Positions 10,520-47,137 of a DNA stretch of 64,000 bases are shown in pieces. Below the pieces are notes generated by a model. The model worked only from the letters and a program-made list of their open reading frames with translations, was not told where the DNA came from and did not search any database. The translations under genes were made by a program, and so were the position numbers. The stretch spans positions 65,033 through 129,032 of the forward strand of contig CAZNWT010000002.1 of NCBI GenBank assembly GCA_964576795.1, in the 5' to 3' direction. Source of the DNA: an uncultured Victivallales bacterium. Lineage in GTDB: Bacteria; Verrucomicrobiota; Kiritimatiellia; UBA8416. Each line of letters opens with the position of its first letter. The stretch's first letter is position 1.

Positions 10520-11076
10520 GTATCAGCGGGGAGACTCTGAGGACGGTTGGTGACGCTTCGATCCTGAAGCGCCCCAAGGTGGCGCTGTTCTGCTCGGTCA
10601 AATGTCCTGGAAGACTAATTCTTGAAACCTACGACCTCGCCAAGAAATTTCGCCGCGACGGCATTCTTGTTGTGAGTGGGTTCCATTCCCCCATGGAGCA
10701 GGAATGCCTCCGCATTCTGCTTCAATCCCCACACCCGGTCATCTGGTGTCTCGCTCGCGGCATGTATCGCCGCGTGCCTACTAGCCCGATAGATTGCCGT
10801 CCTGCAGTCGAGGGTGGCCGTCTAGCGATCGTATCCCCGTTTCCGGAGAAGATGCGCCACGTCACTGCGGAGACGGCGATGATTCGGAATCGCTTCGTCG
10901 CCAGCATGGCCGACGCCATCGTGGTTTCCCACGCGACAAGCGGAGGCAAGATGGATGCCCTATGTAGGGAGCTCCTCGCGGCAGGTAAACCGCTCTACAC
11001 CTTTGATCATCCGGCAAACGAAGAACTTCTGCGTGCTGGGGCACAGTCTGTTGCCGCTATGGCGGGTGCTGGTTGA
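10516..11076 (+). CDS. DprA/Smf-like (SLOG Rossmann) protein, 186 aa
   Basis: 'ILVVSGFHSPMEQECLRILL' resembles the DprA 'SGxARGIDxxAH' signature. 'RNRFVASMADAIVVSHATSGGKMDALCRELLAAGKPLYTF' resembles the DprA C-terminal 'RNRiiagls...vvveaa..SGaliTa..Al..gr.vfavPG'. Overlaps the stop of the nuclease gene. Confidence 0.55.
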   Translation: MSISGETLRTVGDASILKRPKVALFCSVKCPGRLILETYDLAKKFRRDGILVVSGFHSPMEQECLRILLQSPHPVIWCLARGMYRRVPTSPIDCRPAVEGGRLAIVSPFPEKMRHVTAETAMIRNRFVASMADAIVVSHATSGGKMDALCRELLAAGKPLYTFDHPANEELLRAGAQSVAAMAGAG

Positions 11077-26097: not shown

Positions 26098-26145
26098 GGG
26101 GTCAGATGTCAAAAATTTCCTAGAAAATTTTTGACGTCTGCCCCC
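26098..26145. repeat. P1 palindrome copy (~48-bp perfect hairpin GGGGTCAGATGTCAAAAATTTYCTAGAAAATTTTTGACGTCTGMCCCC). Other copies at 27726-27773, 28142-28189 (inside the RAYT-DnaA CDS), 28842-28889 and 29113-29161. Half-copies at 26063-26080, 28106-28128, 29041-29060 and 29162-29181
   Basis: Read directly from the sequence. Palindrome centred on TCTAGA, at least 5 full copies within 3.2 kb. Confidence 0.9.
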
Positions 26146-26414
26146 TTTTTCTTCTGACCCCTTTTTTACGGTACCAGCCGGTGCGCCACCATAGCATGTG
26201 TCATTCCGAGCGAAGTGCTTGCATCCCGGACTTGCTTCGGGGGCGAGGGATCTCGGTTTGGGCAACACGCCTTTAATGGATGACCCCGGTTATGAGTAGG
26301 CACACATTCCCGACAGTCCCTAATCGGGATTCCCAACTCCGAGGTGTAGCCCCAGATTGTATCTGGGCCCGCCTGACGGGCGGGAATACGTGATGCAATG
26401 ACGCACAGAGAGCA

Positions 26415-27576
26415 TCAGGCGATGATAGAGCCATCCCAAAGGCGATTGAGAAATTCGCGCCAGGGAAGGATGTCAATCTCGCCGACTCGTCTGGCTTGGG
26501 ATTCGTTACATACGACAATGGCTTTTGCAGGGGAATACTCATCTATGAAGGCCCGTAGAGGGCGAAGATCCCGTGACTGTACGCTACGTGTTCCTTTCAC
26601 CTCAATGGCCACCTGACCGTCACCTAGGATAAAGTCGACCTCCAAGCCTGACTTGGTACGCCAAAAGGCAAGTTTATGTTCAAGCTCTAGATAGGAGCGG
26701 TGCGCAACTAATTCCATAAGCATGAAATGTTCAAACGCTTGACCAAACAATTCGCCACGCTCTGATTCAATTTTTCGGCCTGAAAGAAATCCCGCTACCC
26801 CAACATCGAAGAGGTAGAACTTCGAAGCTTTTCCAATGACTTGTCGGCTTTGACGCCTCTTAAACGGTGGCAGCATCATCCCTAGTAGCGTATCCATGAG
26901 AATTTGGTAGTACTCTCGAACCGTTTTTGCGTCGACTCCGCACTCACGCGCAATGTTGGCGAAATTGGTCAGCTGGCCATGCGAATACCCCATTGCCTCA
27001 AAGAATCGGGAAAATGCCGGGATGTTCCTCGTGAGACCTTCGTCAAAGACTTCCTCTTTAAGATAGTCACTTACGTAAGCTTTCAGATCTCGGCGACCGT
27101 GCGTTTGGAGATAGTGCGCGGGAATGAGTCCAAGATTCAAAGCCTGCAGCAGATCAAGCTCTGGTAGTTCACGTGTTGTTAGCGGATGCATGTGAAAGCG
27201 CCAAGCGCGACCGCCAAGCAGGTTTGCGTGCCCCCTGCGGAGTTTGCGTGCACTTGAACCGCAAAGAATGAAACCAATGCCTTTGTTTTCGATCAGCCAG
27301 TGCACCTCATTCAGTAAATGAGGGACTTTTTGAACTTCATCGAGAATAACGGGGTGTTGCAGCTCTTCTGGTGTGCGTGCCAGCAGCTGCTCGCGAAGAA
27401 GTGCAGGTCGCTTTGTGAGTTCAAAAAGCAGGTCGGTTTTTAGAAAATCATAAACAATACTATCAGGAAAACGCATTTTCAGCAGTGTTGATTTCCCTGT
27501 TTTCCTCGCACCCCACAAGAATGCAGATTGCCCGGTCGGCAAGTCCAGATTTATGATTCTATCTATCGAATTCATG
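26415..27576 (-). CDS. AAA+ ATPase of the AAA_14 + DUF4143 family ('ATP-binding protein')
   Basis: Walker A 'GARKTGKST', Walker B 'PVILDEVQ', DUF4143-like C-terminal half. Confidence 0.7.
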
Positions 27577-27784
27577 ATATCGTCCCCCGAATAAGTCAAC
27601 TAAACAGGAGTAGGTTGCCGGTTTTGGACGGTTAATGCAAGTAAGATCTTTTTGGTAGGCGAGGGTAGGCACACATCTCCGAGGTGTAGCCCTCTCATTC
27701 CTGCCTGTGGCCGGTGTAGGCCCACGGGGTCAGATATCAAAAATTTCCTAGAAAATTTTTGACGTCGGACCCCTGACTGGGTAA

Positions 27785-28840
27785 TCACCTCGTTAAATCG
27801 CCACATAATGCATAAAGTTGCGTGGCCATCACTTGATTATCTGCTACTTCTTGTCGGAGCTTTTTCAACTGTGCTGATACAGCTGCCGAAGTTCCGTACT
27901 CGAGCGTTTCGGCAACTTCTCTTTGGTTCATCCCTGCAAGTTTACAGAGCAAATAAGCGGCAATAGGTCTCGCAAATGAACCATATTGACGCCGCAGCAG
28001 TTCAGAGGGATTTAAATCAAAATGCTGTGCCACCGCATGAATAATGACTTCTGGAGAAATGTTTACCGATCGTCTTCTGAAATGATCTGCGGGAGAAGCC
28101 TCCCCGGGGTCAGATGTCAAAAATTTCGTACCCTCTGCCACGGGGTCAGACGTCAAAAATTTTCTAGAAAATTTTTGACATCTGACCCCGCTCTCTCCGC
28201 TCTCCCCTCCCTCTGATTTTAGAATTTCAATAAATTCGGTGTCTGTATTAGCAATACCCGCCTCAATAAACTTTCTGTATTGTTCTTCCCGATCATGGTT
28301 TTGCTCCATCATTGAAAGTATGGGTTGGTACTCTACAAAGTTCCAGCGCCAAACGGGATCAATGTATCCGCGAAAGGTGCTCCAGCCATATTGGCGCAGA
28401 TAGAGGATTTTTTCGTCAACGGTGCTGTCCTTATGTCGACTGGTGTGTATGGGATTGAGGTGTATATAGCGGCTGAGTTTGAGAAGGTATTGATTCCCTT
28501 TGACGAGAACGGAGTTATAGCGTCCTTGAAAAAGATGGCCGCACTCATTGTGTCGAAGGTTGAAATAAACGCTATAGCCGGTGAGAACGCTTTGCATAAA
28601 GCGGCTGATATTCGCCTTGGGAGTTTCTGCTAATAAGTGGAAATGATTATCCATGAGACAGATCAGATAGAGGCGGACATCATAAGAATCGCAACTCTCG
28701 GCCAGACGACGAAGTAGTCGTTCTCGATCGTGATTGTCGTTAAAAATATCACGCCGCCCGTTGCCGCGGGAGGTGATGTGGTATATGGCGCCCTCAAATT
28801 GCAATCTGCGCTTACGTGGCATAGAACACCTTTCGCACAA
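27785..28840 (-). CDS. HUH Y1 transposase (IS200/RAYT-like) fused to a DnaA domain-IV-like HTH; carries an in-frame P1 palindrome insertion in the linker
   Basis: HuH 'LMDNHFHLLAE', catalytic-Tyr motif 'SRYIHLNPI'. C-terminus 'FARPIAAYLLCKLAGMNQREVAETLEYGTSAAVSAQLKKL' resembles DnaA domain IV. Linker peptide 'GVRCQKFSRKFLTSDP' is translated from the palindrome. Confidence 0.75.
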   Translation of the reverse strand: MCERCSMPRKRRLQFEGAIYHITSRGNGRRDIFNDNHDRERLLRRLAESCDSYDVRLYLICLMDNHFHLLAETPKANISRFMQSVLTGYSVYFNLRHNECGHLFQGRYNSVLVKGNQYLLKLSRYIHLNPIHTSRHKDSTVDEKILYLRQYGWSTFRGYIDPVWRWNFVEYQPILSMMEQNHDREEQYRKFIEAGIANTDTEFIEILKSEGGESGESGVRCQKFSRKFLTSDPVAEGTKFLTSDPGEASPADHFRRRSVNISPEVIIHAVAQHFDLNPSELLRRQYGSFARPIAAYLLCKLAGMNQREVAETLEYGTSAAVSAQLKKLRQEVADNQVMATQLYALCGDLTR

Positions 28841-29212
28841 CGGGGTCAGATGTCAAAAATTTTCTAGAAAATTTTTGACGTCTGCCCCCTACCTTCCATC
28901 TCTCGAAATGCAACCGTTTCTATCTCTCGATACGGAACCGAGTCATAGCAGGATATAGAGGCGACGGGGGAGGACGTGCTGGGAAAATAGTGATTTATAA
29001 GGGAATTTCAGGGGGAGCAGATCGCTATAGCTTCAATATTTGAATTTTTGAAGCCTGACCCCAGAGGGTTACCAGAGGGTTAATTTCGCAACGGGGGCAC
29101 GCAACCGCGCAACGGGGTCAGATGTCAAAAATTTTCTAGGAAATTTTTGACGTCTGACCCCAATTTTTGACGTCTGACCCCTGGCTTGCTGGTGACATTT
29201 GATTTAGCCTCT

Positions 29213-33826: not shown

Positions 33827-34160
33827 CCCTATGAATTAATGTGCACTTTAAGAAAATAATGCCACCAATTCAATATCTTTATAAAAAAGGAGGGGTAATG
33901 GAGTGAAGGCCATCTATTCCAGTTAAGATTTTGAACAAAGAGGAAGCAAAGGAATACAGAAAGCCTGCTATTCTAAAGATCAAGGAAGCTTGGGCTACTG
34001 CTGGAATTTGAACAGAAGGAAACGAAGAGAACGAAGAAGAAGACTCAACTCATGTTGCCGGATTGAAGTTGTTCTGTTGGACACATATGATACATTTAGA
34101 ATCACTGTAAAGAGATGCGTTTACAATGGGATCGAAGCTTTGTTTGATGGAGGCGATGTT

Positions 34161-35006
34161 ATGAGTAAAGAAGAGGCGTTGGCTGTTTTTGAGAAACATT
34201 CAATTCGTCGGTTCTATGACGAAACCGATGAAGCTTGGTATTTTTCTGTTGTGGATGTTGTTGGCGCACTTACGGACAGTGCCAACCCGCGGGATTACTG
34301 GTTTAAGATGAAAATCCGGGTTAAGAGTGAGGATGGATTTCAGTTGTCGACAATTTGTCGACAACTGAAACTAATCTCTTCCGATGGAAAGAAATACGCT
34401 ACTGATTGTGCAAATGTGGAGGGGGTGTTCCGAATTATTCAATCCATCCCATCGCCCAAGGCGGAACCCTTTAAGCAGTGGTTGGCCAAGGTGGGGTACG
34501 AGCGAGTTCAGGATATGAGTGATCCTGCGCGTTCACTCGACCGGGCCCGTGACTACTGGCAGCAGCATGGGCGCAGCGAAAAATGGATTCAGCAGCGTAT
34601 GATGGGGCAGGAGACCCGCAACAAACTGACCGATTATTGGAAAGGTCACGAAATCAAGGGAGAAGGTGAGTATGCCATTCTCACCAATATCATTCATCGG
34701 GAGTGGAGCGGGGTTTCGGTAAAGCATCATAAGGCTGCCAAAGGTCTCAAAACTCAGAATTTGAGAGACCACATGAGTGAGGCGGAACTGATTTTTACCG
34801 CATTGGCCGAACTGTCCACCCGACAGATCGCCGAGAGTGTCGAAGCAACGGGACTGCCGGAAAATTCCGAAGCAGGACGGAAGGGTGGCGGCATTGCGAA
34901 GAAGGCGCGCAGAGAACTTGAGCAGAAGACAGGTCGAAGTGTAGTGACCGGTGAGAACTTTTTACCGCCAGAGGCCGGAAAGAAAGAACGGAAGCCGGTC
35001 AAATGA
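34161..35006 (+). CDS. Bro-N domain protein (DinD/antirepressor-like)
   Basis: 'FEKHSIRRFYDETDEAWYFSVVDVVGALTDSANPRDYW' matches the Bro-N signature. Start set at MSKEE with a plausible RBS. Confidence 0.5.
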   Translation: MSKEEALAVFEKHSIRRFYDETDEAWYFSVVDVVGALTDSANPRDYWFKMKIRVKSEDGFQLSTICRQLKLISSDGKKYATDCANVEGVFRIIQSIPSPKAEPFKQWLAKVGYERVQDMSDPARSLDRARDYWQQHGRSEKWIQQRMMGQETRNKLTDYWKGHEIKGEGEYAILTNIIHREWSGVSVKHHKAAKGLKTQNLRDHMSEAELIFTALAELSTRQIAESVEATGLPENSEAGRKGGGIAKKARRELEQKTGRSVVTGENFLPPEAGKKERKPVK

Positions 35007-35340: not shown

Positions 35341-38217
35341 ATGAAGGGGGCGCGGTTGCGGTTAACAGATTACCATGCAAAGTATTATGCGAATGAGCTG
35401 ACCAAGCGTTGCTCTTCCGATAGTCTTGAGAAGCTTACGGCATCGCTGCTTGATGCCCGCGTCGACCTCAACCCCCACCAGATTGAAGCTGCTCTTTTTG
35501 CTTTTAAATCTCCGTTTTCGACTGGAGCAATCTTGGCTGACGAAGTTGGGCTGGGAAAGACGATCGAAGCGGGCATCGTCCTTTCTCAGAAGTGGGCGGA
35601 ACAGAAGCGCAAAATCCTGATCATTGTTCCATCCAGCTTGCGGAAGCAGTGGAATCAGGAGCTCGCAGAGAAGTTCTTTCTGCCTTCCTCAATTTTGGAA
35701 GCAAAACCATTTAACAAGTGCATTAAGGCAGGAGAGGCAAATCCTTTCACGCGGGACGAAATCGTGATCTGTTCTTACCATTTTGCCCGAAACAAAGCCG
35801 ACTATGTATCCCGTATCGGATGGGATCTCGTCATCTTTGACGAAGCACACCGTCTGCGGAATGTATATAAGCCGAACAACAAAATTGCCCGGACACTAAA
35901 GGAAGCTCTCAAGAATTCCCCGAAGCTCTTGCTTACCGCGACACCGCTACAAAACTCACTGTTGGAGCTCTACGGTCTGGTCAGTTTTGTCGATGAGTAT
36001 TGCTTCGGCGATCTCAAAAGTTTTCGGAGTCAGTACGCTCGCCTCGGGACACAGGACACGTTTGCTGAATTAAAGTCGAGGCTGCAGCCGATCTGCCAAC
36101 GCACCTTGCGGCGGCAGGTTCTTGAGTATGTCCGGTACACGAACCGTGTGCCTATTACGCAGGCCTTTATCCCAAGTAAGGAGGAACAGGTTCTGTATGA
36201 GCTGGTATCGGAGTACCTTCAGCGTTCTAATTTACAGGCTTTACCCCCTAGCCAACGCTCGCTGATGACTCTCGTTATGAGGAAACTCCTAGCCTCATCT
36301 ACTTTCGCTATCGCGGGAGCTCTGAGTTCATTGGTGCGGAAGCTGGAGGGGCGTCTACGGCACGCGCGCATCAAGGCTGAAGACGATGAATTGGGGATGG
36401 ACTTCGAGAAGTTGGATGAACTCAGAGATGAATGGGATCAGGGCGATGCAGATGAAGAACTCGAAACACTGTCGAAGGAGGATGCAGAAGCCATTTCCGC
36501 CGAGATTGAGGATCTGAAGCAGTTTCGCGATTTGGCTGAGTCCATTGCCCACAACGCCAAAGGCAAAGCCCTTGTCAAGGCACTCCGTACAGGAATGAAG
36601 AAGGCCGTTGAACTCGGGGCCGAAAAGAAGGCTATCATTTTCACTGAATCCCGACGCACTCAGGAGTATCTCGCCAATGTGCTAGCCGACACTGAATTCT
36701 CGGGGAAGGTTGTGCTGTTTAATGGATCAAACAACCTTCCTGACGCTAAGGATACATACCACAAGTGGCTTGAGAAGCATGCCGGCACAGATATGATCAC
36801 TGGATCGCGGACGGCAGATAAGAGGGCCGCGTTGGTCGACTCATTTCGCGAAGACTCCCAGATTATGATTGCGACAGAAGCTGCTGCCGAAGGCATCAAC
36901 CTCCAGTTCTGCTCTTTGGTTGTGAACTATGATCTGCCATGGAATCCCCAACGCATTGAGCAGCGCATCGGAAGATGCCATCGCTATGGACAGAAGCATG
37001 ACGTTGTTGTGGTCAATTTCTTGAACAAGAAGAATGCCGCCGATCAACGCGTCTTTCAGCTTCTGTCCGAGAAATTCATGCTCTTCAGCGGGGTGTTTGG
37101 CGCTAGTGATGAAGTGCTGGGAAGCATTGAATCCGGCGTCGACTTCGAGAAGCGTATTGTCGAGATCTACCAGACTTGCCGAACGCCTCAAGAGATAGAC
37201 GCTCTATTCGACAAGCTTCAGCAAGAGCTCTCTTCTGAAATTGACGAAACCATGGGGATTACACGGCAGAAGCTTCTTGAGAATTTTGACGAAGAGGTAC
37301 ACGAGAAGCTTCGAGTCAATCTACAGGCTAGCACCGAATACCTGAACCGCTACGAGAAACTCCTTTGGAGACTCACGGCTCACGCGCTTAATGATTGTGC
37401 CGAAATCAACGAGGCCGATTTGTCCTTTGTGCTTTCAGAAAATCCCTTTGCCGGAAAGGGCATCTCTACCGGGCGGTACCGCTTTGGACGGGAGGTGGCT
37501 GACGCGCATCACTATCGCTTAGGACATCCGCTGGCCCATTCTATCCTGGGGCACTACAAGCCGCTTACTCTGCCGGACGCCTCGCTTGATTTTGACTATT
37601 CAGGGACGCCCTCGAAAATCTCTGTACTGGATGACATGGCGGGAGAAACCGGATGGCTACGGCTGGACCGACTGACAATCGACTCATTTGAGACTGAAGA
37701 TCATCTCCTGTGGGCAGGAATCACGGATGCGGGGCACGTGCTCTCTGACGAACAATGCCGCCGACTCTTCAGCCTTCCGGCTGTCCAAGGAATCCTGGAT
37801 TACTCGAATACAAAGGACGAAAAGGTAATCAATCAGATCCTCCATGCCGGACAGCAGACCGTGATTCAAACCAACGCCGAACGCAATGCCGGCTTTTTTG
37901 ATGCTGAAATGGGAAAACTGGACCACTGGTCAGAGGACATGAAAACCAGTCTTGAGATTCGGCTCAAGCAGCTCGACATCGACATCAAGAGTATGAAGAC
38001 CGAAGCGCGCAAGATGATCAGCCTTGAGGAGAAGGTCGCCGCCCATCGCCATATCAAGGATCTGGAGAAACAGCGTAATGAAATGCGCCTCAACCTCTAT
38101 CAGGCTCAAGATGATGTTGAATCGAAGAAAGAAGCACTGATAGAAGAAATCGAAGCCCGTCTCAAACAACAAATATCGACGACAACACTATTTAGTATAA
38201 AGTGGAAATTAATATAA
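35341..38217 (+). CDS. SNF2-family helicase (SNF2_N + Helicase_C) with ~400-aa C-terminal extension ending in a coiled-coil, 958 aa
   Basis: Motif I 'ADEVGLGKTIEAG', motif II 'DLVIFDEAHRLRN', Helicase_C 'ATEAAAEGINLQ…QRIGRCHRYGQ'. Confidence 0.85.
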   Translation: MKGARLRLTDYHAKYYANELTKRCSSDSLEKLTASLLDARVDLNPHQIEAALFAFKSPFSTGAILADEVGLGKTIEAGIVLSQKWAEQKRKILIIVPSSLRKQWNQELAEKFFLPSSILEAKPFNKCIKAGEANPFTRDEIVICSYHFARNKADYVSRIGWDLVIFDEAHRLRNVYKPNNKIARTLKEALKNSPKLLLTATPLQNSLLELYGLVSFVDEYCFGDLKSFRSQYARLGTQDTFAELKSRLQPICQRTLRRQVLEYVRYTNRVPITQAFIPSKEEQVLYELVSEYLQRSNLQALPPSQRSLMTLVMRKLLASSTFAIAGALSSLVRKLEGRLRHARIKAEDDELGMDFEKLDELRDEWDQGDADEELETLSKEDAEAISAEIEDLKQFRDLAESIAHNAKGKALVKALRTGMKKAVELGAEKKAIIFTESRRTQEYLANVLADTEFSGKVVLFNGSNNLPDAKDTYHKWLEKHAGTDMITGSRTADKRAALVDSFREDSQIMIATEAAAEGINLQFCSLVVNYDLPWNPQRIEQRIGRCHRYGQKHDVVVVNFLNKKNAADQRVFQLLSEKFMLFSGVFGASDEVLGSIESGVDFEKRIVEIYQTCRTPQEIDALFDKLQQELSSEIDETMGITRQKLLENFDEEVHEKLRVNLQASTEYLNRYEKLLWRLTAHALNDCAEINEADLSFVLSENPFAGKGISTGRYRFGREVADAHHYRLGHPLAHSILGHYKPLTLPDASLDFDYSGTPSKISVLDDMAGETGWLRLDRLTIDSFETEDHLLWAGITDAGHVLSDEQCRRLFSLPAVQGILDYSNTKDEKVINQILHAGQQTVIQTNAERNAGFFDAEMGKLDHWSEDMKTSLEIRLKQLDIDIKSMKTEARKMISLEEKVAAHRHIKDLEKQRNEMRLNLYQAQDDVESKKEALIEEIEARLKQQISTTTLFSIKWKLI

Positions 38218-38233
38218 AGCTCACGGACGAGGG

Positions 38234-38305
38234 GGGGGCTGGCCTTCGGGGAAGGCCGCCCTACTGGCTGAGAGCCGTAGCCCCCACTTCCCCGAAGCGC
38301 AGGGC
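38234..38305. repeat. REP doublet (type A GGGCTGGCCTTCGGGGAAGGCCGCCCTAC + type B GTAGCCCCCRCTTCCCCGAAGCGCAGGGC). Further clusters at 39938-40044, 40663-40720, 40778-40988 (C+A+tandem 16-mers+B), 42728-42830 (C+A+B) and 44393-44455 (C+A, inside a CDS 3' end)
   Basis: Each unit is a GC-rich hairpin with GTAG/CTAC termini, with A and B in inverted orientation (REPIN-like). Type C is GTAGCCCCGCCTTCMCCGAAGGCGAGGG. Confidence 0.85.
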
Positions 38306-38402
38306 CGAGGAACGCTAGGATGATGGCAGCGAAAATGAATTTCAGAGTGATCCTTAAATTTACCTTGAAGGTAAATCAAGATGAATGCTATAAAGGTGTT
38401 CG

Positions 38403-38714
38403 ATGAAGTATGAGTTAGCGGGGAAGCACCTCAAAGACCTCTACACAAAGGGCGCCAGCAAAAAATTCAAGTTCATGGACAAGAAGCTCTGCTCAAAGTT
38501 CGTAGAACGCGTTGGGCGGATTGAAGCCGCAGAGAACATTTACGACCTAAGGAATCCACCATCAATGGAGTTTGAGTCTTTGGAGGGCTACCCCAACCGG
38601 TTTTCTATCCGTTTAGACAAAAAGCATCGTCTTGAGTTCGATATCGAATTTGAAGACGAAAAGAAGACGTTTGGTTCCGTAACCGTGATTACGGTAAGCA
38701 AGCACTACGAGTGA
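38403..38714 (+). CDS. higB: HigB-like toxin (RelE/ParE superfamily, 'plasmid maintenance system killer')
   Basis: 103 aa, 'LRNPPSMEFESLEGYPNRFSIRLDKKHRLEFDIEFED'. Lies upstream of the HTH partner, i.e. the hig gene order. Confidence 0.6.
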   Translation: MKYELAGKHLKDLYTKGASKKFKFMDKKLCSKFVERVGRIEAAENIYDLRNPPSMEFESLEGYPNRFSIRLDKKHRLEFDIEFEDEKKTFGSVTVITVSKHYE

Positions 38715-39823
38715 GGCATGTGATGGGTAAACTAAAGCCATTTGTGAATTTGGGTCCGGGCGATACGATTCGAGAAGAGTTGGCGTATTTAAGCTGGGAG
38801 CAGAAGGACTTGGCGGAAATCATGGGGCGAACAGAGAAGAATGTTAGCCAATTGATCACGAACAAGGCCCCCGTGACGTATGAGACAGCTAGCCAGCTTT
38901 CGAAGGTCTTCAAGCAATCCGTGCAGTTTTGGCTCAATCTCGATGCCAATTACCGGCAACGACTCGAAGAAAGTGCAAAGGTTGTGGATACAGAAGCAAA
39001 AGCGCTCATCTACCGCTACATGCCAGTGCGCGAATTACGCAAGTATATCGACCTCCCACGAAGAACCGATGATCTTATTGCAGCAGTCAAAAGTTTCTGG
39101 GACATAGATGAACTGAATTTTGCGTTCTTGGAAACACAAGCGCAGGTCTGTTTCCGTAAATCCGAAGCCTACCGCAATTTCAATCCCTACTATGCCCTCA
39201 CGTGGCTTCAGCTTGCACGCAACTCTCTCACTGGGCATCGCCCTAAAGCGACCTACGCCCCAGATCGCTTGATGGCACTTGCTGAGAAAATTTGTGATTA
39301 TACGATACAGTCTAATGGCATTCATGCATTCATAAAGCAGCTGAACCGTTGTGGCGTTGTCTTTCTGCATCTTGATCATTTTCAGCAGACTTACGTGGAT
39401 GGTGCCTCATTCTTTGATAATGGCAAACCGGTCATTATTTACACTGCCCGTTATAACCGAAACGACAACTTTTGGTTCACAATGGCTCACGAACTTGGGC
39501 ACGTTCTGCTGCATGCCGACGATCAAGAGTCATTCTTTATCGACTCACTGGATCACCTTGATCTTTCTAATAAACGAGAAAAGGAAGCTGACGCTTTTGC
39601 TGAGAAAAGGCTTCGTTCTTCTGAGATTTTGGAGTCATTTCACGGCGTTAAGCGGCCAACGGTTGTTCGGATAAAGAGTGTAGCTCAGAAACTTGGACTC
39701 CATCCTGCGGTAATTGCCGGAAGCCTGCAGCATCACGGCCAAGCATCCTGGAGCAGTTTCCATGAGCTGAAGGAGGGTGTGAAAGCTGATCTTCCTCGTG
39801 CGAAGATCGAAAGGGCGAAATGA
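38711..39823 (+). CDS. HigA-like XRE HTH antitoxin fused to an ImmA/IrrE-family Zn-metallopeptidase domain
   Basis: HTH 'IREELAYLSWEQKDLAEIMGRTEKNVSQLI', HEXXH motif 'FTMAHELGHVLLH'. Start overlaps the HigB stop. Confidence 0.75.
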   Translation: MRHVMGKLKPFVNLGPGDTIREELAYLSWEQKDLAEIMGRTEKNVSQLITNKAPVTYETASQLSKVFKQSVQFWLNLDANYRQRLEESAKVVDTEAKALIYRYMPVRELRKYIDLPRRTDDLIAAVKSFWDIDELNFAFLETQAQVCFRKSEAYRNFNPYYALTWLQLARNSLTGHRPKATYAPDRLMALAEKICDYTIQSNGIHAFIKQLNRCGVVFLHLDHFQQTYVDGASFFDNGKPVIIYTARYNRNDNFWFTMAHELGHVLLHADDQESFFIDSLDHLDLSNKREKEADAFAEKRLRSSEILESFHGVKRPTVVRIKSVAQKLGLHPAVIAGSLQHHGQASWSSFHELKEGVKADLPRAKIERAK

Positions 39824-40181
39824 ACATGCGCAAGATTAATGGGTTTCATTTTGCTCTTCCGTTGTGGAGATCAATATGAGTAAACCCACAATAATCTGCC
39901 CCAAGTGCACGTCTCGAGGTGGAGCTTGCAGGAGGGTGGGGCTGGCCTTCGGGGAAGGCCGCCCTACGTGGGGACGAGCGATGCAGGGATGATGACGAAA
40001 GGTTAGTGGCGTTGAGTAGCCCCCGCTTCCCCGAAGCGCAGGGCCGCACAAGGCAAGGACTACAGCAGGACAAAACAACATGACACGACATCCGGACACA
40101 GTCAGTTTTTAGCGGGGCGTCCTTCCGCATTGGGAGGTCGTCGACGGCTGCTATTTCGTAACAGTTCGGCTGGCAAACAGT

Positions 40182-40661
40182 TTGCCGCGACACGTTACGG
40201 AAGAACTGGCTGCTGTGTTGTCGGATGTGACGGAAAAGGATTATCTGAAGAAGTCGCGGGCGTATTTCAAGCAGATGGAGCAGTGGCTCGACAAGAACAC
40301 GGGGGATACGTGGTTACAGCAAGAGGCTGTGGCATCCATTGTGCAAGACACGATTGAGAAGTATACGAATCTGGGCTATTGGCATATGTTTGCAGCCGTG
40401 ACCATGCCGAATCATGTCCACCTGTTCTTTCGTTGTGGCGATCGGTCGCTTGGGCGTGTCATGCGTAGTTTCAAGCGCTATACTGGGCGAGCTGGAAACG
40501 CGGTGCTGGGGCGACACGGCAAACGCTTTTGGCAGCGGGAATGGTTTGATCATTGGTCGCGCAGCACAGATGAAGATGACAAGATTGTGTCGTATATCAG
40601 GAACAACCCCATGCGTGCAGGATTGATAAAGGATGGCGAAACATGGCCATGGTTGATGTAA
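40182..40661 (+). CDS. REP-associated tyrosine transposase (RAYT, IS200-like Y1 HUH), 159 aa
   Basis: HuH 'MPNHVHLFF', Tyr motif 'VSYIRNNPMRAGL'. Flanked on both sides by GTAG-REP doublets. Confidence 0.8.
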   Translation: MPRHVTEELAAVLSDVTEKDYLKKSRAYFKQMEQWLDKNTGDTWLQQEAVASIVQDTIEKYTNLGYWHMFAAVTMPNHVHLFFRCGDRSLGRVMRSFKRYTGRAGNAVLGRHGKRFWQREWFDHWSRSTDEDDKIVSYIRNNPMRAGLIKDGETWPWLM

Positions 40662-40838
40662 TGGGGCTGGCCTTCGGGGAAGGCCGCCCTACGTAGCCCC
40701 CGCTTCCCCGAAGCGCAGGGCAGAACCGGGCAAGGATTACAGCAAAGAAAATGGCGAATGATTGGCGGGGGTGAATTGAGTAGCCCCGCCTTCACCGAAG
40801 GCGAGGGTTGGGCTGGCCTTCGGGGAAGGCCGCCCTAC

Positions 40839-40918
40839 TTGGGGCCGCGCGATATTGGGGCCGCGCGATATAGGGGCCGCGTGATGCAAGGGCCGCGTGA
40901 TGCGAGATGTTCGTGATG
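40839..40918. repeat. Five degenerate 16-nt tandem repeats (TTGGGGCCGCGCGATA…) inside a REPIN spacer
   Basis: Read from the sequence. The homologous spacer at 39968-40015 has a single unit. Confidence 0.8.
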
Positions 40919-41014
40919 CAGGGATGATGGTGAACGATCAGTGGCGTTGAGTAGCCCCCGCTTCCCCGAAGCGTAGGGCAAAAGCACTGGGCAAAACAAC
41001 GCAAGGAATTTGGT

Positions 41015-42706
41015 ATGCCTAAGAAAAAACAGAAACTTGAACTGACATGGATTGGGAAGGATGAGCAGCCGCAGCTTGAGCCACGGATTCTTATTGAAGA
41101 TCCGAGTAAGTCATATGGCGATTCGAATGCCGAGAATATGCTAATCCATGGGGACAATCTGCTTGCTCTCAAGGCACTGGAACAGGAGTTTACTGGGAAA
41201 GTTCAATGTATCTATGTTGATCCACCATTCAACACCGGCCAAGCGTTTCAGCACTACGAAGATGGAGTTGCTCATTCGTTGTGGCTGACTCTTATGGAGT
41301 CTCGGATTGAGTTTCTCTTCAGATTGTTGAGCCCAACGGGAACGCTGTGGGTACATTTGGACGACAATGAGGTCCACTATATGAAAGTTCTTATGGATCA
41401 GACTCTTGGACGAAGTCGGTTCATATCATCAATTGTGTGGCGAGCGGCCGACTCCTCGAATAATGATGCGAAGCAGTTTTCCTTGGACCACAACACTATT
41501 CTTGTCTATGCCAAAAGCTCCGACTGGGAGTCATTTCTTCTTCCTCGGCAAGACAAGGACAATCTGCACTACAGTAATCCAGATGACGACCCTCGGGGAC
41601 CGTGGTTTCAGGGTAACCTATCTTCTCCAAACCCCCGAGAAAATCTGCGCTTTGATGTCTCTTCCCCGCAAGGCTATGTGATTCATCCGCCGAGTAATGG
41701 ATGGCGCTGGAGCAGAGAGCGTATGAATTCTATGATCAGCACAGGGGAGATCGCTTTCTCTAGCGACGGAACGAGGGTAATGAAGAAGACGTACCTCGCG
41801 AACCAAAAGGGCCTTTCGCCCTCATCGCTCTGGAGTGACATTGAAGACACCGGGCACAACCGACAGGCAAAGTATGAGCTGAAAAAGCTTTTTCCCGACA
41901 CTCCGACGGCAGAGCTTTTCAAGACCCCTAAGCCGGAACGTCTGATTTACAAAATCCTTCAGATAGCCACGAAAGAGGGGGATATCGTGTTGGACTCATT
42001 CCTTGGTTCTGGAACTACTGCGGCGGTCGCACATAAGTTGGGGCGTAGATGGATAGGCGCCGAACTGGGAAATGCCTACAGCGAGGCCTGCATTCCCCGG
42101 CTCAGAAAGGTTTGCGACGGAACCGACCAAGGGGGAGTATCTAAATTGATTGAGTGGGTTGGCGGCGGCGGATTCAAGTGCTACGAACTTGCTCCCAGCC
42201 TCTTGAAGTCTGATACACACGGCAACTGGGTAATCAGCGATGAGTACAATGCCGACATGTTGGCCGCCGCGATGGCGAAGCATGAGGCGTTCAACTACAG
42301 CCCGGATGCGGAGATCTACTGGAAGCAGGGTAAATCATCCGATAAGGATTTTATTTTCACCACGACGTCATTTGTACAGGTGGCATTTCTTGATCGGTTG
42401 CACGAGGAAATGCAAGAGGATGAGCACCTGCTGATTTGCTGCAAGAAGTTTTCTGCGCCCTGTGCGCGACGCTATTCCAACATTGAGATCAGGAAGATCC
42501 CGAAGATGCTACTGGGTAAGTGCGAGTTCGGGCGTGATGACTATAGCCTTAACATCGTGAATGTTCCCACAGAGGAGGATGCGCCCGCTTTTGTGCCGCA
42601 AGGCCCTCCCGCTGCGCCAACTGCAAAACCGAAGCCAAAACGCAAGAAGGGCGGACGTCCCGGCCTGAGTCAGCCGGATTTGTTTGGTGAAGGAACGGCA
42701 GAATGA
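41015..42706 (+). CDS. mod: Type III restriction-modification Mod subunit (beta-class N6-adenine methyltransferase)
   Basis: Motif IV 'IYVDPPFNTG' precedes motif I 'VLDSFLGSGTTAAVA', the beta-class order. 563 aa. Confidence 0.85.
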   Translation: MPKKKQKLELTWIGKDEQPQLEPRILIEDPSKSYGDSNAENMLIHGDNLLALKALEQEFTGKVQCIYVDPPFNTGQAFQHYEDGVAHSLWLTLMESRIEFLFRLLSPTGTLWVHLDDNEVHYMKVLMDQTLGRSRFISSIVWRAADSSNNDAKQFSLDHNTILVYAKSSDWESFLLPRQDKDNLHYSNPDDDPRGPWFQGNLSSPNPRENLRFDVSSPQGYVIHPPSNGWRWSRERMNSMISTGEIAFSSDGTRVMKKTYLANQKGLSPSSLWSDIEDTGHNRQAKYELKKLFPDTPTAELFKTPKPERLIYKILQIATKEGDIVLDSFLGSGTTAAVAHKLGRRWIGAELGNAYSEACIPRLRKVCDGTDQGGVSKLIEWVGGGGFKCYELAPSLLKSDTHGNWVISDEYNADMLAAAMAKHEAFNYSPDAEIYWKQGKSSDKDFIFTTTSFVQVAFLDRLHEEMQEDEHLLICCKKFSAPCARRYSNIEIRKIPKMLLGKCEFGRDDYSLNIVNVPTEEDAPAFVPQGPPAAPTAKPKPKRKKGGRPGLSQPDLFGEGTAE

Positions 42707-42866
42707 GTATGCAGCGTTACGAATTGAGTAGCCCCGCCTTCCCCGAAGGCGAGGGCCGGGAGCTGGCCTTCGGGGAAGGCCGCTCTACTGCACCGCGCGA
42801 CGTAGCCCCCGCTTCCCCGAAGCGCAGGGCCGCACAGCGCAGGGATTGTGGTGGGGGGAATGGCAG

Positions 42867-44480
42867 ATGAAAACGAACAAACGTCAACTGCTGAAGGTGA
42901 GTCTGCCCTTTGGAAGCACGGAAGGCATAGCGCTGGAGTTCAAGGAAGCCAGAAATGCGTTGCCGAAGAATCTTTTCGATACGGTCTGCGCTTTTCTGAA
43001 TATGGATGGTGGGTTGATTGTTCTGGGAGTGGCCGATGATGGTGCCATCACGGGGGTGGAGCCCGGGGCTGTAGACGCGATCAAGACTGAGCTTGCGAAT
43101 CTTTCCAATAATCCCCAGAAGCTGTCACCGCCTTATTTGCTCTTTCCTCATGTTGAGGTGCACGACGGGAAACGCGTAATCACAGTGCAAGTTCCGGCCA
43201 GCTCGCAGGTTCACCAGACTGGCGGGCATACCTATCTGCGTAGTGAGGATGGTGACTATCGTATCAAGGGGCTAAACCAGATCGCGGGGCTGATGAATCG
43301 GAAGTTGAGTCTATTCAGTGAGCAGCGCGTGCTGCCATATTTGGGCATGGATGATCTGGATCCAGCGTTGTTTGAAAAGGCACGAATCCTGATGAAGGCG
43401 CACCTGCCGCAGCACCCGTGGGCTGCCCTACCGCCCGAGGATTTATTGAAAGTGGCGGGCTTTGTCCGGAAGGATTTTGAGACGGGAAAGCCGGGGTATA
43501 CACTTGCCGCCGCGCTAATGTTCGGCACGGACGCCACCATTCAGAGCGCGGCACCCGGATACAAGTTCGATGCGCTGCTACGGCGGCATGATCAGGAACG
43601 TTTTGATGATCGGTTGACGGTGCGAACCAACCTGATTGATGCTTTCGATCTGCTGATGGGATTCGTGGACAAGCACCTGAATGATCCTTTCTATCAGGAG
43701 GGGACGACCAGTATCAGCCTGCGCGCCGTCATCTTCCGTGAGCTTGTGGCAAACATCATCGCCCATCGGGATTATGTAAGTGTGGCTCCGGCGACGTTCT
43801 GTATCTATCCAGACCGGGTGGAGCTGAAGAATCCGAACATCCCGCACTATCATGGCAGAATAGATCCGGATGCCTTCACGCCTTTCCCCAAGAATCCGAC
43901 CATCTGCAAGTTCATGATCCAGATTGGGCGCTATGAGGAGCTAGGCTCCGGCGTGCGGCGCGTGAACAAGTATCTACCATACTATGCCCCCGGTGCGGGA
44001 AAACCCGTATTCGAAGATGGCGATATGTTTACAGTAACTGTGCCGGTAGTGGACACCCTGAAAAAGAAACGGCTAGAGTCGGCACCAGTCGGGGCACCAG
44101 TCGAGGCACCAGTTGGGGCACCAGTCGAGGCACCAGTCGCAGGGCAAGTCACAGGGCAAGTCACAGGGCAAGTCACAGGGCAAGTACAGAGGATACTTGC
44201 GATCTGCGAGGGGGAGATGACACGAAAAGAGCTGCAACTCGCCATCGGACTGAAGGGGCGTGACAACTTTGAGGTCAACTATCTCAAGCCTGCACTGGTC
44301 GCAGATTTGCTAGAAATGACCATCCCCGACAAGCCGAAGAGTCGCTTGCAGAAGTACCGGATCACGGACAAAGGGCGTGAGTTGCAAGAACAAGTAGCCC
44401 CGCCTTCACCGAAGGCGAGGGCCGGGGGGCTGGCCTTCGGGGAAGGCCGCCCTACTCAAGAGCTGGAGGAAACCTCATGA
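42867..44480 (+). CDS. AlbA_2/Schlafen-like (divergent AAA, PF04326-type) + HATPase_c_4-like + C-terminal wHTH protein. Contains in-frame 12-nt tandem repeats and a REP-derived C-terminal tail
   Basis: 'EGIALEFKEARNALPKNLFDTVCAFLNMDGGLIVLGV', 'IAHRDYVS…PDRVELKNPN', 'IGRYEELGSGVRRV'. Repeat peptide 'APVGAPVEAPVGAPVEAPVAGQVTGQVTGQVTGQV'. Last 25 aa are encoded by REP C+A. Confidence 0.6.
   Translation: MKTNKRQLLKVSLPFGSTEGIALEFKEARNALPKNLFDTVCAFLNMDGGLIVLGVADDGAITGVEPGAVDAIKTELANLSNNPQKLSPPYLLFPHVEVHDGKRVITVQVPASSQVHQTGGHTYLRSEDGDYRIKGLNQIAGLMNRKLSLFSEQRVLPYLGMDDLDPALFEKARILMKAHLPQHPWAALPPEDLLKVAGFVRKDFETGKPGYTLAAALMFGTDATIQSAAPGYKFDALLRRHDQERFDDRLTVRTNLIDAFDLLMGFVDKHLNDPFYQEGTTSISLRAVIFRELVANIIAHRDYVSVAPATFCIYPDRVELKNPNIPHYHGRIDPDAFTPFPKNPTICKFMIQIGRYEELGSGVRRVNKYLPYYAPGAGKPVFEDGDMFTVTVPVVDTLKKKRLESAPVGAPVEAPVGAPVEAPVAGQVTGQVTGQVTGQVQRILAICEGEMTRKELQLAIGLKGRDNFEVNYLKPALVADLLEMTIPDKPKSRLQKYRITDKGRELQEQVAPPSPKARAGGLAFGEGRPTQELEETS
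44081..44190. repeat. In-frame 12-nt tandem repeats (gcaccagtcgrg x5 then gggcaagtcaca x4) within the CDS
   Basis: Read from the sequence. Confidence 0.9.
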
Positions 44481-47137
44481 ACCATACCGCAAACTATGTG
44501 CGCAACCGCCTAAGCCTTCGCCCTCCGCAGACGGAGAGCTTGGAGATCCTGGCGTCATTGGCCGAAAAGCTATCGCTATCCAAAAGCCCTGACCTGGCAT
44601 CCGAGCTGGAACTCGTGAAAGCCGGGTTCTCAACCTGCACCGATTTTGAGCGTGATTTTCCGTCGCTCTGCTTTGCGCTGGCCACGGGTGTCGGCAAGAC
44701 GCGGCTGATGGGAGCTTTTGTTGCGTATCTCTACCTGGAAAAGGGCATTCGTAACTTTTTCATCATGTCACCCAACCTCACGGTCTACAATAAGTTGATC
44801 GAGGATTTTTCAGATCCATCCAGTCCCAAGTATGTCTTTCCGGGCATCGGGGATCTGTCCCAGAATCCGCCTCGGATTATTACGGGCGACAATTATGAAT
44901 ACGCGGCTCAGGGGGATTTGCTGACGGATGTGAACATTAATTTCTTCAATATTTCGAAGATTAATGCAGAGACCAGAAGTGGAGGCGTGCCCCGCATCAA
45001 GCGCATGGCCGAATATCTCGGTGAGAGCTATTTCAACTACCTTTCGAATTTGGATGACCTTGTCCTGCTGATGGACGAGTCCCACCATTATCGGGCGGCC
45101 CGCGGAATGGCCGTTATCAACGAGCTCAGGCCTATCTTGGGCCTAGAGTTAACAGCCACTCCCCAGGTCGAAAACGGGGGTAAGAAGATCCCTTTCAAGA
45201 ATGTGGTCTACGAGTATTCTCTCAGCAAGGCCATTCAGGACGGTTTCGTAAAGACCCCGGCTGTCGCCACGCGAAAGGATTTTGATCCTTCGCAGCATAG
45301 TGATGAGGAGCTTGATCGCATTAAACTTGAAGACGGTATCCGCATTCATGAGGACACTCGTGTGGCCCTCGAACTCTATGCACGCGACAACAAAATATGC
45401 CGGGTGAAACCGTTCATTCTGGTTGTCGCAAAGGACACCCGGCATGCGGGCCAGCTCAAGGCTATGATTGAGTCTGACAAATTCTTCGAAGGGCAGTATG
45501 CAGATAAGGTAATGGAGATCCACTCGAACCAACGTGGTTCAGAGAAGGATGAGAATATCGAGAAGCTATTGGCCTTGGAGGCTGTGGACAACAATATTGA
45601 AATTGTCATTCATGTGAACATGCTCAAGGAGGGGTGGGACGTCAACAACCTCTATACGATTATTCCGCTCCGTACCGCTGCATCGACAACCCTCCGCGAA
45701 CAGACTATAGGTCGCGGCCTCCGGCTCCCCTATGGCGTCATCACAGGTGATCCCAAGGTCGACAAGCTCACCATTGTGTCGCATGACCGATTCCAGGAAA
45801 TTGTGGACGAGGCCAACAAACCGAATTCAATCATTCATCTTGAGAATGTGATCGAAATCGACGAGGAGTTAACGACTCCGAAGGAGACTGTCAGCACGGT
45901 ATCCTCCATGGACACATTTTTCGATCCGGAGCAGAAGCAGGTCGAAGCTATTGAGAACAAGGCTGAAAGACAGAGAGCCCAGCTAACGCTCGACACGAAG
46001 AAGGAAATCGTCACTGCGCTGCATAGCCTCAATGCGGAGGTGAAGTCGGTGCATGAGCTAACACGACCGGAAGTGAAAAAGCTAACGGTGGAGCGTATTA
46101 AGCAGAAGTTTGCGGGGGATCTCTTTGTCGACGACCGGGTCAAGGAAGCGGAATCCCATTACGATGCCATAGCCAAGGAGTTCACAAAGCGGATCATTGA
46201 GATCCCGAGAATCATCATTCAGCAGTCCGATAACGTGCGGTCGGGATTTCATGAGTTCAAACTGGACGTCCTGGGGCTGGATCTGAAGCCAGTGTCGGAA
46301 GAGATTGTCAGGCAATCCCTCACTGATAACACCATGGAATCCATTTATGGTAAGGGACGTATTATTCCGGAGAATCTCGACAACCTAATCGTCAATGAAC
46401 TTATAAACGCCCCCGAGATTGACTACGACGAATGTTCGGATCTGCTGTTCTCGCTAGCAAATGACGCGCTGACTAAGTTGCGGTCGTCTCTAAACGAGGA
46501 TGACCTCATCAATGTCGTACAGTACCATCGGCGAGATATCGCGGCCTTCATCTATAAACAGATGATGGCTCCCTCGCATTTCTACTGTGATACACCTGCG
46601 TACGAGGAGGCGATTGTCCATCCGTTTACCCAGATTGAGGCGCACAACTTCTCGATGTTCTCTGCTGACACAATCCACGACTACACCGAAACCATTACGC
46701 CGACGCGATTGATCCCCTCCAAAGTGTTTGCTGGTTTCAAGAAGGCCTGCCACGACAAATACAAATTCGACTCCAAAACCGAGAAAGACTTCGCGGCCAT
46801 CATAGAGAAGGACGAGGATGTGTTGAAGTGGCTGAGACCAGCGAAGAAACAGTTTCAGATCTACTGGAAGCACAACTCCCGCCAGTACATCCCCGACTTC
46901 GTTGTCGAAACCGCCGACACCATCTACATGGTCGAGACGAAAAAAGAGGGCGACATCGAAACCGGCGAGGTGCAGGAGAAGGCGACTGCCGCCGTTGAAT
47001 ACTGCAAGCATGCCTCCAATTTCACCACCAAGAACAACGGCAAGCCCTGGCAATACGTCATCATCCCCCACAACGCCGTGTTTGCGAATATGGGGTTAAG
47101 CACACTCGCCACAAAGTTCGCACACCCCACAGACTAA
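44477..47137 (+). CDS. res: Type III restriction enzyme Res subunit (SF2 helicase + C-terminal PD-(D/E)xK)
   Basis: Walker A 'LATGVGKTRLM', motif II 'LLMDESHHY', C-terminal 'YIPDFVVETADTIYMVETKKEGD'. Start overlaps the stop of the upstream gene. Confidence 0.85.
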   Translation: MNHTANYVRNRLSLRPPQTESLEILASLAEKLSLSKSPDLASELELVKAGFSTCTDFERDFPSLCFALATGVGKTRLMGAFVAYLYLEKGIRNFFIMSPNLTVYNKLIEDFSDPSSPKYVFPGIGDLSQNPPRIITGDNYEYAAQGDLLTDVNINFFNISKINAETRSGGVPRIKRMAEYLGESYFNYLSNLDDLVLLMDESHHYRAARGMAVINELRPILGLELTATPQVENGGKKIPFKNVVYEYSLSKAIQDGFVKTPAVATRKDFDPSQHSDEELDRIKLEDGIRIHEDTRVALELYARDNKICRVKPFILVVAKDTRHAGQLKAMIESDKFFEGQYADKVMEIHSNQRGSEKDENIEKLLALEAVDNNIEIVIHVNMLKEGWDVNNLYTIIPLRTAASTTLREQTIGRGLRLPYGVITGDPKVDKLTIVSHDRFQEIVDEANKPNSIIHLENVIEIDEELTTPKETVSTVSSMDTFFDPEQKQVEAIENKAERQRAQLTLDTKKEIVTALHSLNAEVKSVHELTRPEVKKLTVERIKQKFAGDLFVDDRVKEAESHYDAIAKEFTKRIIEIPRIIIQQSDNVRSGFHEFKLDVLGLDLKPVSEEIVRQSLTDNTMESIYGKGRIIPENLDNLIVNELINAPEIDYDECSDLLFSLANDALTKLRSSLNEDDLINVVQYHRRDIAAFIYKQMMAPSHFYCDTPAYEEAIVHPFTQIEAHNFSMFSADTIHDYTETITPTRLIPSKVFAGFKKACHDKYKFDSKTEKDFAAIIEKDEDVLKWLRPAKKQFQIYWKHNSRQYIPDFVVETADTIYMVETKKEGDIETGEVQEKATAAVEYCKHASNFTTKNNGKPWQYVIIPHNAVFANMGLSTLATKFAHPTD

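Follow-up and report, generated by a model that had tools for sequence, protein, structure and literature searches.

A probable REPtron with an interrupted RAYT gene in a type III restriction-modification operon of an uncultured Victivallales bacterium

What are the short hairpin repeats that lie between, and at one place within, the genes of a type III restriction-modification operon, and how are they related to the small transposase gene in their midst? The locus lies in a 64,000-nt stretch of DNA (hereafter the window) of an uncultured Victivallales bacterium (assembly GCA_964576795.1, contig CAZNWT010000002.1, positions 65,033 to 129,032). We read it, with a probability of about 0.85, as a REPtron, a transposase gene of the RAYT (REP-associated tyrosine transposase) type amid its cognate non-autonomous repetitive extragenic palindromic (REP) elements, lodged in an SNF2-Mod-Schlafen-like-Res defence operon of a bacterium of the Planctomycetes-Verrucomicrobia-Chlamydiae (PVC) superphylum.

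The repeats comprise three related units, A, B and C. Unit A was defined as GGGCTGGCCTTCGGGGAAGGCCGCCCTAC, exact or near-exact matches were searched for, and dinucleotide-preserving shuffles served as the null. The window contains 14 GTAG-tagged bulged hairpins of 28-29 nt (six A, five B and three C) at six sites between 38236 and 44455, a span of 6.2 kb, and the number of matches expected in the shuffles is 0.00 for each of the three units. This agrees with the preliminary description of the locus, made from the sequence alone, which had recognized three hairpin units arranged as inverted doublets or triplets at six sites. Twelve of the units are extragenic, and only one of the six sites is intragenic. 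The sites and their units are as follows, in window positions on the plus strand as written:

38236-38305: site 1, A, 12 nt, B
38236-38264, minus strand: unit A of site 1, an exact match with hairpin fold, beginning 18 nt past the SNF2/DrmD-like stop codon
38277-38305, plus strand: unit B of site 1, with one mismatch
39939-40044: site 2, A, 48 nt, B
39939-39967, minus strand: unit A of site 2, by sequence match, upstream of the RAYT gene
40016-40044, plus strand: unit B of site 2, by sequence match, its end 35 nt from the RAYT ATG
40664-40721: site 3, A and B abutting
40664-40692, minus strand: unit A of site 3, by sequence match, beginning 2 nt past the RAYT stop codon
40693-40721, plus strand: unit B of site 3, by sequence match, abutting unit A head-to-head (CTAC/GTAG)
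40780-40979: site 4, C, A, an expanded tandem spacer, B
40780-40807, plus strand: unit C of site 4, by sequence match
40810-40838, minus strand: unit A of site 4, by sequence match and fold, forming with C a tail-to-tail doublet (a REPIN, or REP doublet forming a hairpin)
40839-40918, no strand: spacer of site 4, about five 16-nt tandem units (GGGGCCGCGCGATATA-like), by Tandem Repeats Finder (TRF) and comparison
40951-40979, plus strand: unit B of site 4, with one mismatch, its end 35 nt from the mod ATG
42728-42830: site 5, C, A, B
42728-42755, plus strand: unit C of site 5, by sequence match, beginning 21 nt past the mod stop codon
42760-42788, minus strand: unit A of site 5, with two mismatches
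42802-42830, plus strand: unit B of site 5, by sequence match, its end 36 nt from the ATG of the Schlafen-like gene
44394-44455: site 6, C, A
44394-44421, plus strand: unit C of site 6, by sequence match, translated within the 3' tail of the Schlafen-like gene
44427-44455, minus strand: unit A of site 6, by sequence match, likewise translated within that tail

At all sites the units follow the fixed order [C]-A-[B]. The GTAG end is read on the minus strand for A and on the plus strand for B and C, and orientation therefore alternates within the clusters: the C+A doublet is tail-to-tail, with arms about 85% complementary and a 9-nt gap between them, and the A+B doublet is head-to-head. The expansion of one spacer into five 16-nt tandem repeats, noticed beforehand, is real at 40839-40918, where TRF reports 3.8 copies (88%, 40841-40901) that are followed by a degenerate continuation; the homologous spacer of site 2 has a single copy of the 16-nt unit.

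Each unit folds alone into a 7-bp inner stem, which terminates in CTTC/GAAG, a 3-4-bp outer stem with one bulged base and a 3-nt loop, and all 14 units carry an unpaired GTAG at one end of the imperfect palindrome. Among 52 distinct related units from many genomes, Watson-Crick or G-U pairs make up 91% of the pair cells, as compared with 73% in shuffles (none of 500 as high as 91%) and 28-51% when the partners are slid, with the caveat that the search pattern fixed part of the inner stem and left free the outer stem and the bulged A. The exact architecture (GTAG, 3 bp, 7 bp, loop, bulged A) fits 153 of the 188 copies in all fetched loci, and twelve different stem combinations among the fetched copies retain the bulged-A arrangement. 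Judged from these comparisons, the hairpin is kept across related units through compensatory changes. A known structured RNA was rejected as an explanation, the Rfam scan of the units having returned a chance match alone (HIV_FS2, E = 0.92, far under the gathering score). Canonical terminators or promoters were rejected as well, both scans yielding fewer matches than the shuffles; the terminator scan detected no plus-strand T-run after any unit, and its sole match inside a unit lies on the non-coding strand (44420-44398).

The enzyme that would act on such hairpins is encoded between sites 2 and 3:

40080-40661, plus strand: RAYT-type Y1/HUH transposase gene, 193 codons, by Pfam, NCBIfam, homologue alignment and PDB match

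Its product has HVH as the HUH motif and SYIRNNP as the Tyr motif, matches Pfam Y1_Tnp (7e-8), and scores 78.9 bits (E = 3.3e-22) with the NCBIfam model REP_Tyr_transpos when the 182 residues after an internal TAG are used as the query; the IS200 model scores just 24.5 bits. The closest PDB structure is 4ER8, the Escherichia coli TnpAREP bound to a REP, with both the HUH and the Tyr motifs aligned. The earlier identification of the gene as a RAYT with HVH and YIRNNP motifs is thus borne out, as is its bracketing by A...B upstream and A+B downstream. The length of 159 amino acids (aa) first given to it is wrong, an artefact of counting from the first TTG after the TAG.

The TAG in question is codon 11 (40110-40112) and is the only in-frame stop when the gene is translated from the ATG at 40080. 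A database search with the RAYT returned 258 homologues, of which the nearest have 193 aa and 75-82% identity. Alignment of the window RAYT with 13 relatives shows Trp at the position of codon 11 in all 12 full-length (191-193 aa) homologues, the thirteenth row being the window's own truncated 148-aa product, which starts downstream of the TAG. This Trp falls within a nearly invariant FWRGxLPHWE motif, and the nonsense codon precedes the first beta-strand (YFVTVRL); the remainder of the window RAYT retains every invariant residue, including HVH and SYIRNNP. Reading of TAG as a sense codon was rejected, since TAG terminates four of 40 long open reading frames (ORFs) in this genome. Because TAG is an ordinary stop here, the simplest reading of the gene, barring an assembly error at this base, is that it became a pseudogene very recently (TGG to TAG), and the window copy is probably inactive.

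Do this transposase and these repeats belong together? In the window the RAYT gene is flanked by units of its own family, A-B upstream and abutting A and B downstream. Intact RAYT homologues 76-82% identical to it, on three other contigs (cited here, as are other contigs, by our working labels: L129, L137 and L138), are flanked by related units. In L129, from a Verrucomicrobiota metagenome-assembled genome (MAG; 76% identity), two head-to-head doublets lie upstream of the homologue and one downstream; in L137 (80% identity) a C-like + A-like doublet is found upstream, and an exact C plus an A with one loop mismatch downstream; in L138 (82% identity) an exact C is found upstream. Related units also stand immediately upstream of an intact RAYT homologue in L130, which belongs to the Kiritimatiellae MAG JAFGHX01, and the motif occurs on several other contigs of that MAG. 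Since these four contigs show it, the association of the RAYT clade with the repeat family recurs in independent genomes. Unit anatomy, enzyme identity and the pairing in other contigs together support the view, already put forward in the preliminary description, of a GTAG REP/REPIN family with its cognate RAYT.

The occurrence of the family beyond transposase genes was followed with the degenerate pattern GTAGSSCSSSCTTCNCCGAAGSSS, which yielded more than 119 stretches among the listed matches in species-representative genomes; the listed matches lie mostly on many contigs of a few Victivallales, Kiritimatiellae and Desulfohalobiaceae MAGs and are typically single inverted doublets. Eight metagenome contigs and a MAG contig labelled Planctomycetia (L002) contain the exact 26-nt core of A; the viral contig collection gave no A unit. 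None of these nine contigs shares flanks with the window island, and at least five of them have a C-like GTAG unit ahead of A. On this comparative evidence the REP family is real and present at many loci elsewhere. Five high-GC metagenome contigs (L122, L123, L125, L127 and L128) have, after the exact A, a common segment of about 60 nt (tcgtctccggtgccgtctcatcatgttctctctgtgcgcgcggccgc...), and because this segment is shared, A is there part of a longer repeated element. A specific link of A-unit contigs to defence genes was set aside, the flanks of the eight metagenome contigs (inspected as raw ORFs) looking heterogeneous, e.g. helicase-like, integrase-like and Fic-like.

The readable part of the genome itself amounts to 68 kb, namely the window, which is the reverse complement of positions 4314-68313 of the 133-kb contig ENA ERZ27316330 k141_358956, and 4.3 kb past its right edge. 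A relaxed scan (core CTTCNCCGAAG plus GTAG-anchored hairpins) disclosed no further A, B or C copy in the 64-kb window, there is none in the 4.3 kb of source contig past the right edge, and no copy is more than about 4 kb away from the RAYT gene. The census that the preliminary description had called for has two sides: no further copy in the other ~62 kb read of this genome, and the same architecture on many contigs of other genomes. Confinement of the repeats to this locus had been named there as a sign of local duplication; within the 68 kb of this genome the copies are indeed confined, and at the level of the family they are not, with exact A in nine other contigs that have unrelated flanks.

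Several points weigh against the REPtron interpretation: (i) in the 68 kb read of this genome every copy falls in one stretch of 6.2 kb, and dispersal of the family is seen in other genomes and contigs only; (ii) no target-site signature was identified; (iii) the RAYT gene is interrupted, so that present-day mobilisation by this copy is not assumable; (iv) the TAG itself is known from a single assembly and might reflect a minority allele or an error of sequencing; and (v) the REP_Tyr_transpos score falls 1.1 bits under the model cut-off of 80.

Part of the local multiplicity has another source. Sites 2 and 4 agree at 91-92% in A plus its flank and in the spacer plus B (51 and 65 nt), and B plus a tail of about 33 nt is 74-79% identical over 62 nt at four sites. 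Because repeats longer than one unit are shared between sites, these alignments attribute part of the copy number to local duplication of composite modules, or to gene conversion between them, beside any transposition.

An assembly artefact was rejected, two independent assemblies being 100% identical between the repeats and the units being far shorter than k = 141. The independent k-mer assembly of the same organism (Logan, SRR8526173) breaks exactly at REP copies: its contig L001 equals window 40944-42829, from B to B, and L132 begins at unit A of site 6. These breaks are a practical sign of units repeated at or above the assembler's k.

The operon in which the repeats lie has the gene order SNF2, HigB-like/HTH-M78 (HTH, helix-turn-helix), Y1 transposase, mod, Schlafen-like, res. 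Apart from the RAYT gene it consists of:

35341-38217, plus strand: SNF2 helicase, DrmD-like (Pfam; PADLOC DrmD 4e-209), 47% identical to the first gene of the homologous operon L134
38403-38714, plus strand: HigB-like toxin gene (Pfam, PADLOC), overlapping the HTH + M78 peptidase gene
38711-39823, plus strand: HTH + M78 peptidase gene, PD-Lambda-2_B-like (Pfam, PADLOC)
41015-42706, plus strand: type III methyltransferase gene, mod (Pfam, PADLOC, comparison with L134)
42867-44480, plus strand: Schlafen/AlbA_2 + HATPase_c_4 + Fic-like_C (winged-helix) gene (Pfam, homologues)
44477-47137, plus strand: type III restriction enzyme gene, res (Pfam, PADLOC, comparison with L134)

L134, a Logan contig, carries a REP-free homologous operon that encodes SNF2 (47% identical), Schlafen-like (67%), a small extra gene, Mod (48%) and Res (59%). 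Stop and start codons overlap in this operon, and the CTTCNCCGAAG core, the toxin-antitoxin pair, the RAYT and all REPs are absent from it. Because L134 has the same genes with overlapping codons, SNF2-Mod-Schlafen-like-Res represents a conserved, tightly packed system, and this comparison indicates that in the window the conserved operon is opened up by the repeats, the toxin-antitoxin pair and the transposase gene. The pair and the RAYT are each bracketed by direct repeats of the A-B module in the same orientation. A small ORF between them (39877-39993, MSKPTIICPKCTSRGGACRRVGLAFGEGRPTWGRAMQG), with a zinc-ribbon-like CPKC motif at its start, runs through unit A of site 2; it could be what is left of a gene that the repeat has cut short, or a chance ORF. 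Other defence genes of the window (643-11076, 25209-26009, 33990-35006) are without REPs; they include an AAA_15 ATPase + DUF4276 pair (PARIS-like), a LexA-like repressor, a 1061-aa N6_Mtase/MmeI-like methyltransferase, a DprA-like DNA_processg_A protein, an AbiEii toxin and a Bro-N protein that matches PADLOC PDC-S13.

One doublet is translated. The C+A doublet of site 6 (44394-44455) lies inside the Schlafen-like ORF that ends at 44480, and the TGA of this ORF overlaps the res ATG at 44477, precisely as first described. The Pfam winged-helix domain of the protein stops just short of the doublet. Comparison of C-termini, which the preliminary description had proposed, is informative: 40 Schlafen-like homologues (54-76% identical) all end 4-16 residues past an SRLQKYRLTDKGRxxL helix, and none of the 40 has a REPIN-encoded segment. 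In the window the tail reads KGRELQEQ, then VAPPSPKARAGGLAFGEGRPT, then QELEETS and stop. In-silico deletion of 63 nt (the 62-nt doublet and one flanking base) gives a 516-residue protein ending KGRELQE(H/Q)QELEETS, with the TGA still overlapping the res ATG; a deletion of 62 nt would instead fuse the Schlafen-like frame into res. We infer that site 6 is a 21-codon (63-nt) in-frame insertion in a variable C-terminal tail, followed by seven apparently native codons, and the predicted empty site, with the 63-nt insert (44393-44456) absent, would be ...CAAGAACA/TCAAGAG... (the slash marking the junction). The doublet had been taken for the last ~25 codons of the gene; it is translated at the 3' end, as was said, and its extent is best read as 21 codons that precede an apparently native end. 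Just three of the six reading frames of the doublet are open, and for this reason surviving intragenic copies would be a filtered subset.

A second translated doublet, a C-like unit plus an exact A, occurs in the Planctomycetia-labelled contig L002 (323-391, minus strand, inside ORF 69-2708), in frame (VGPRSPNARPGAGLAFGEGRPT) and within a histidine-kinase ATPase domain, in a variable loop. The window orthologue of this kinase (15154-17571, 55% identical) has a different, longer loop without the repeat. Repetition of another kind is found upstream in the Schlafen-like gene, where two in-frame 12-nt tandem arrays (44081-44189; GGCACCAGTCGA x4.9 and AGTCACAGGGCA x4.7) encode (V/A)-x-A/G-P/Q tetrapeptide repeats in a linker of the protein; homologues have similar VTPQ/VTGE repeats in varying number.

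Could the hairpins owe their presence to a function in the transcript? They might be kept as intercistronic RNA elements (3' stabilisers, processing sites or attenuators) that tune the expression of SNF2, toxin-antitoxin, Mod, Schlafen-like and Res. Their placement is in keeping with this: the clusters stand between genes of the same direction, 2-21 nt past the preceding stop codon (115 nt at site 2), the distance from the end of B to the following start codon is 35-36 nt at three sites, the units fold into stable hairpins, and the same placement bias, with an argument for REP transcription, has been reported (PMC3733652). The lack of a coding-strand T-run after any unit and of an Rfam match speaks to the contrary, however, and the REP-free operon L134 manages with overlapping genes; as the explanation of the repeats we consider an RNA role unlikely. 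A co-opted RNA role of the hairpins, possible to judge from their position and fold, is compatible with the REPtron interpretation and does not exclude it.

A bolder scheme would have RAYT-linked REP clusters seed near the transposase gene, act as portable joints or intercistronic RNA elements, open the overlapping SNF2-Mod-Schlafen-Res operon, allow the insertion of the toxin-antitoxin pair and uncouple Mod from Res expression, so that REPs would drive the modular evolution of defence islands; this is a speculation to which we give little credence. Still more doubtful is the proposal that the A-B modules are recombination joints comparable to integron attC, through which the HigB/HTH-M78 pair and the RAYT were inserted as cassettes into an SNF2-Mod-Res operon. 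Each of the two inserts is bracketed by same-orientation A-B modules, and L134 is without both inserts and without REPs, as this proposal would have it, but no integron-type integrase domain occurs among the ORFs scanned (24.4-47.7 kb), which leaves an integron cassette array unsupported, and L134 shows accessory genes moving within the operon without REPs. Moreover, other defence genes of the window (0.6-11 kb) are REP-free, RAYT homologues elsewhere are not adjacent to defence genes, and the units carry the GTAG tag and match RAYT-flanking repeats instead of attC.

That the repeats are purely local, one hairpin-bearing junction segment having been duplicated during assembly of the island with no mobile REP family involved, is hardly credible: all 14 units do fall in a stretch of 6.2 kb, the remaining ~62 kb read being free of them, and A-spacer-B and B plus its 33-nt tail, longer than single units, are common to several sites, but exact A and near-exact C occur in other contigs with unrelated flanks and also flank intact RAYT homologues elsewhere, and the same architecture is dispersed over dozens of contigs of single MAGs.

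Under the REPtron interpretation, and by analogy with E. coli TnpAREP and the IS200/IS605 enzymes, we propose that the RAYT would bind the folded hairpin on single-stranded DNA, read the GTAG tag, cut and rejoin via its catalytic tyrosine and by this action copy doublets to new sites. With the RAYT nonsense-mutated at codon 11, the repeats of the window would be relics. The local copies may stem in part from short-range spread around the transposase gene (the route being inferred), with further copies from duplication or gene conversion of the composite modules (A-spacer-B; B + 33-nt tail), and the 16-nt array may have been produced by slippage. One doublet would have landed in the Schlafen-like tail, where it is presumably tolerated; that one ended up inside a gene would follow from the operon having almost no intergenic space.

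How does the system compare with those already described? As in the REP/BIME (bacterial interspersed mosaic element) and TnpAREP system of E. coli (4ER8; PMC3479197), a GTAG tag lies 5' of an imperfect, bulged, GC-rich hairpin, clusters are made of unit subtypes in alternating orientation, repeats stand on both sides of the transposase gene, and the HUH and catalytic Tyr motifs of TnpAREP align with those of the window RAYT. Protein similarity is nevertheless very low (E = 0.004 over ~90 residues), the window RAYT clade has the N-terminal FWRGxLPHWE motif (nonsense-mutated in the window copy), the stem and loop sequences differ, and the host belongs to the PVC superphylum and not to the Gammaproteobacteria. 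The REPINs and RAYTs of Pseudomonas, described by Bertels and Rainey (PMC3116915, PMC5581495), are alike in that the likely replicative unit is an inverted REP doublet with a short spacer and that the RAYT is flanked by REPs or REPINs; they number hundreds genome-wide, however, whereas just a 6-kb cluster is visible in the window, which adds a third unit, B, head-to-head, beside the tail-to-tail C+A.

The closest precedents come from the PVC superphylum itself. GTAG-tagged REPs are known from more than 80 species, including members of this superphylum (Di Nocera et al. 2013, PMC3733652), and the verrucomicrobium Opitutus terrae is "highly enriched" in them (PMC3733652). The same study already described head-to-head and tail-to-tail dimers, grouped elements and REPtrons, as well as one REP family in blocks at few loci, and reported O. 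terrae as the species richest in intragenic REPs, its dimers encoding 20-30 aa and ~10% of them being located at ORF ends (PMC3733652). The PVC families, such as that of O. terrae, share with the window the tagged stem-loops, both dimer types, REPtrons and intragenic dimers. The A/B/C family may be undescribed, the comparison with the PVC families having been made by description. Rickettsia palindromic elements (cited in PMC3733652) are likewise palindromic repeats translated in frame within genes, but they are longer, have no known RAYT and are commonly intragenic, whereas one of the six sites of the window is intragenic, and that in a variable tail. IS200/IS605 elements also depend on a Y1/HUH transposase, whose substrates are subterminal hairpins of single-stranded DNA; they differ in moving as whole units with distinct left and right ends and in several identical copies. 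Repetition of a whole element was not found here: just the 29-nt units and short modules repeat, and the gene occurs once in the window.

Every element of the finding has a precedent in described REP/RAYT work, and knowledge of how REPs work is unchanged by it. New are the particular repeat family, its RAYT clade, the recent inactivation of the gene and the close grouping of the repeats within a defence operon. The locus adds a documented REP/RAYT pair from a poorly sampled clade, whose relatives are labelled Kiritimatiellae, Verrucomicrobiota, Victivallales and Planctomycetia, and catches a RAYT just after inactivation, with one nonsense codon in an otherwise conserved gene. It also adds two examples of in-frame translated doublets, in the Schlafen-like tail here and in the histidine-kinase ATPase loop of a relative, and an unusually tight clustering of repeats round a transposase gene, in an operon whose REP-free homologue has overlapping genes. 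For annotation it is relevant that k-mer assemblies are broken by repeats of this sort, which also give rise to spurious ORF starts and ORF extensions.

A second, unrelated Y1 transposase gene (27785-28840, minus strand; locus 26098-29181), with Pfam Y1_Tnp, a DnaA_C-like HTH and the motifs HFH and YIHLNP, is ringed by a repeat of its own, the 48-nt near-perfect palindrome GGGGTCAGATGTCAAAAATTTTCTAGAAAATTTTTGACGTCTGACCCC. Full copies of the palindrome are located at 26098, 27726, 28142, 28842 and 29114, with halves of it at 28106, 29043 and 29162. The interdomain linker of this second transposase (residues ~217-245) itself holds one and a half copies in frame. The locus has the appearance of another unit of REPtron type, its repeats once more clustered locally, and under the bolder scheme above it would hint that transposase-proximal clustering may be a rule here. 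A third repeat, AAGTAGGCACACATCTCCGAGGTGTAG, occurs three times (24449, 27663 and 29213) and is followed by TTCCGGCCTGTGGCCGGTGTGCATCCCCGACAATC at two of these sites.

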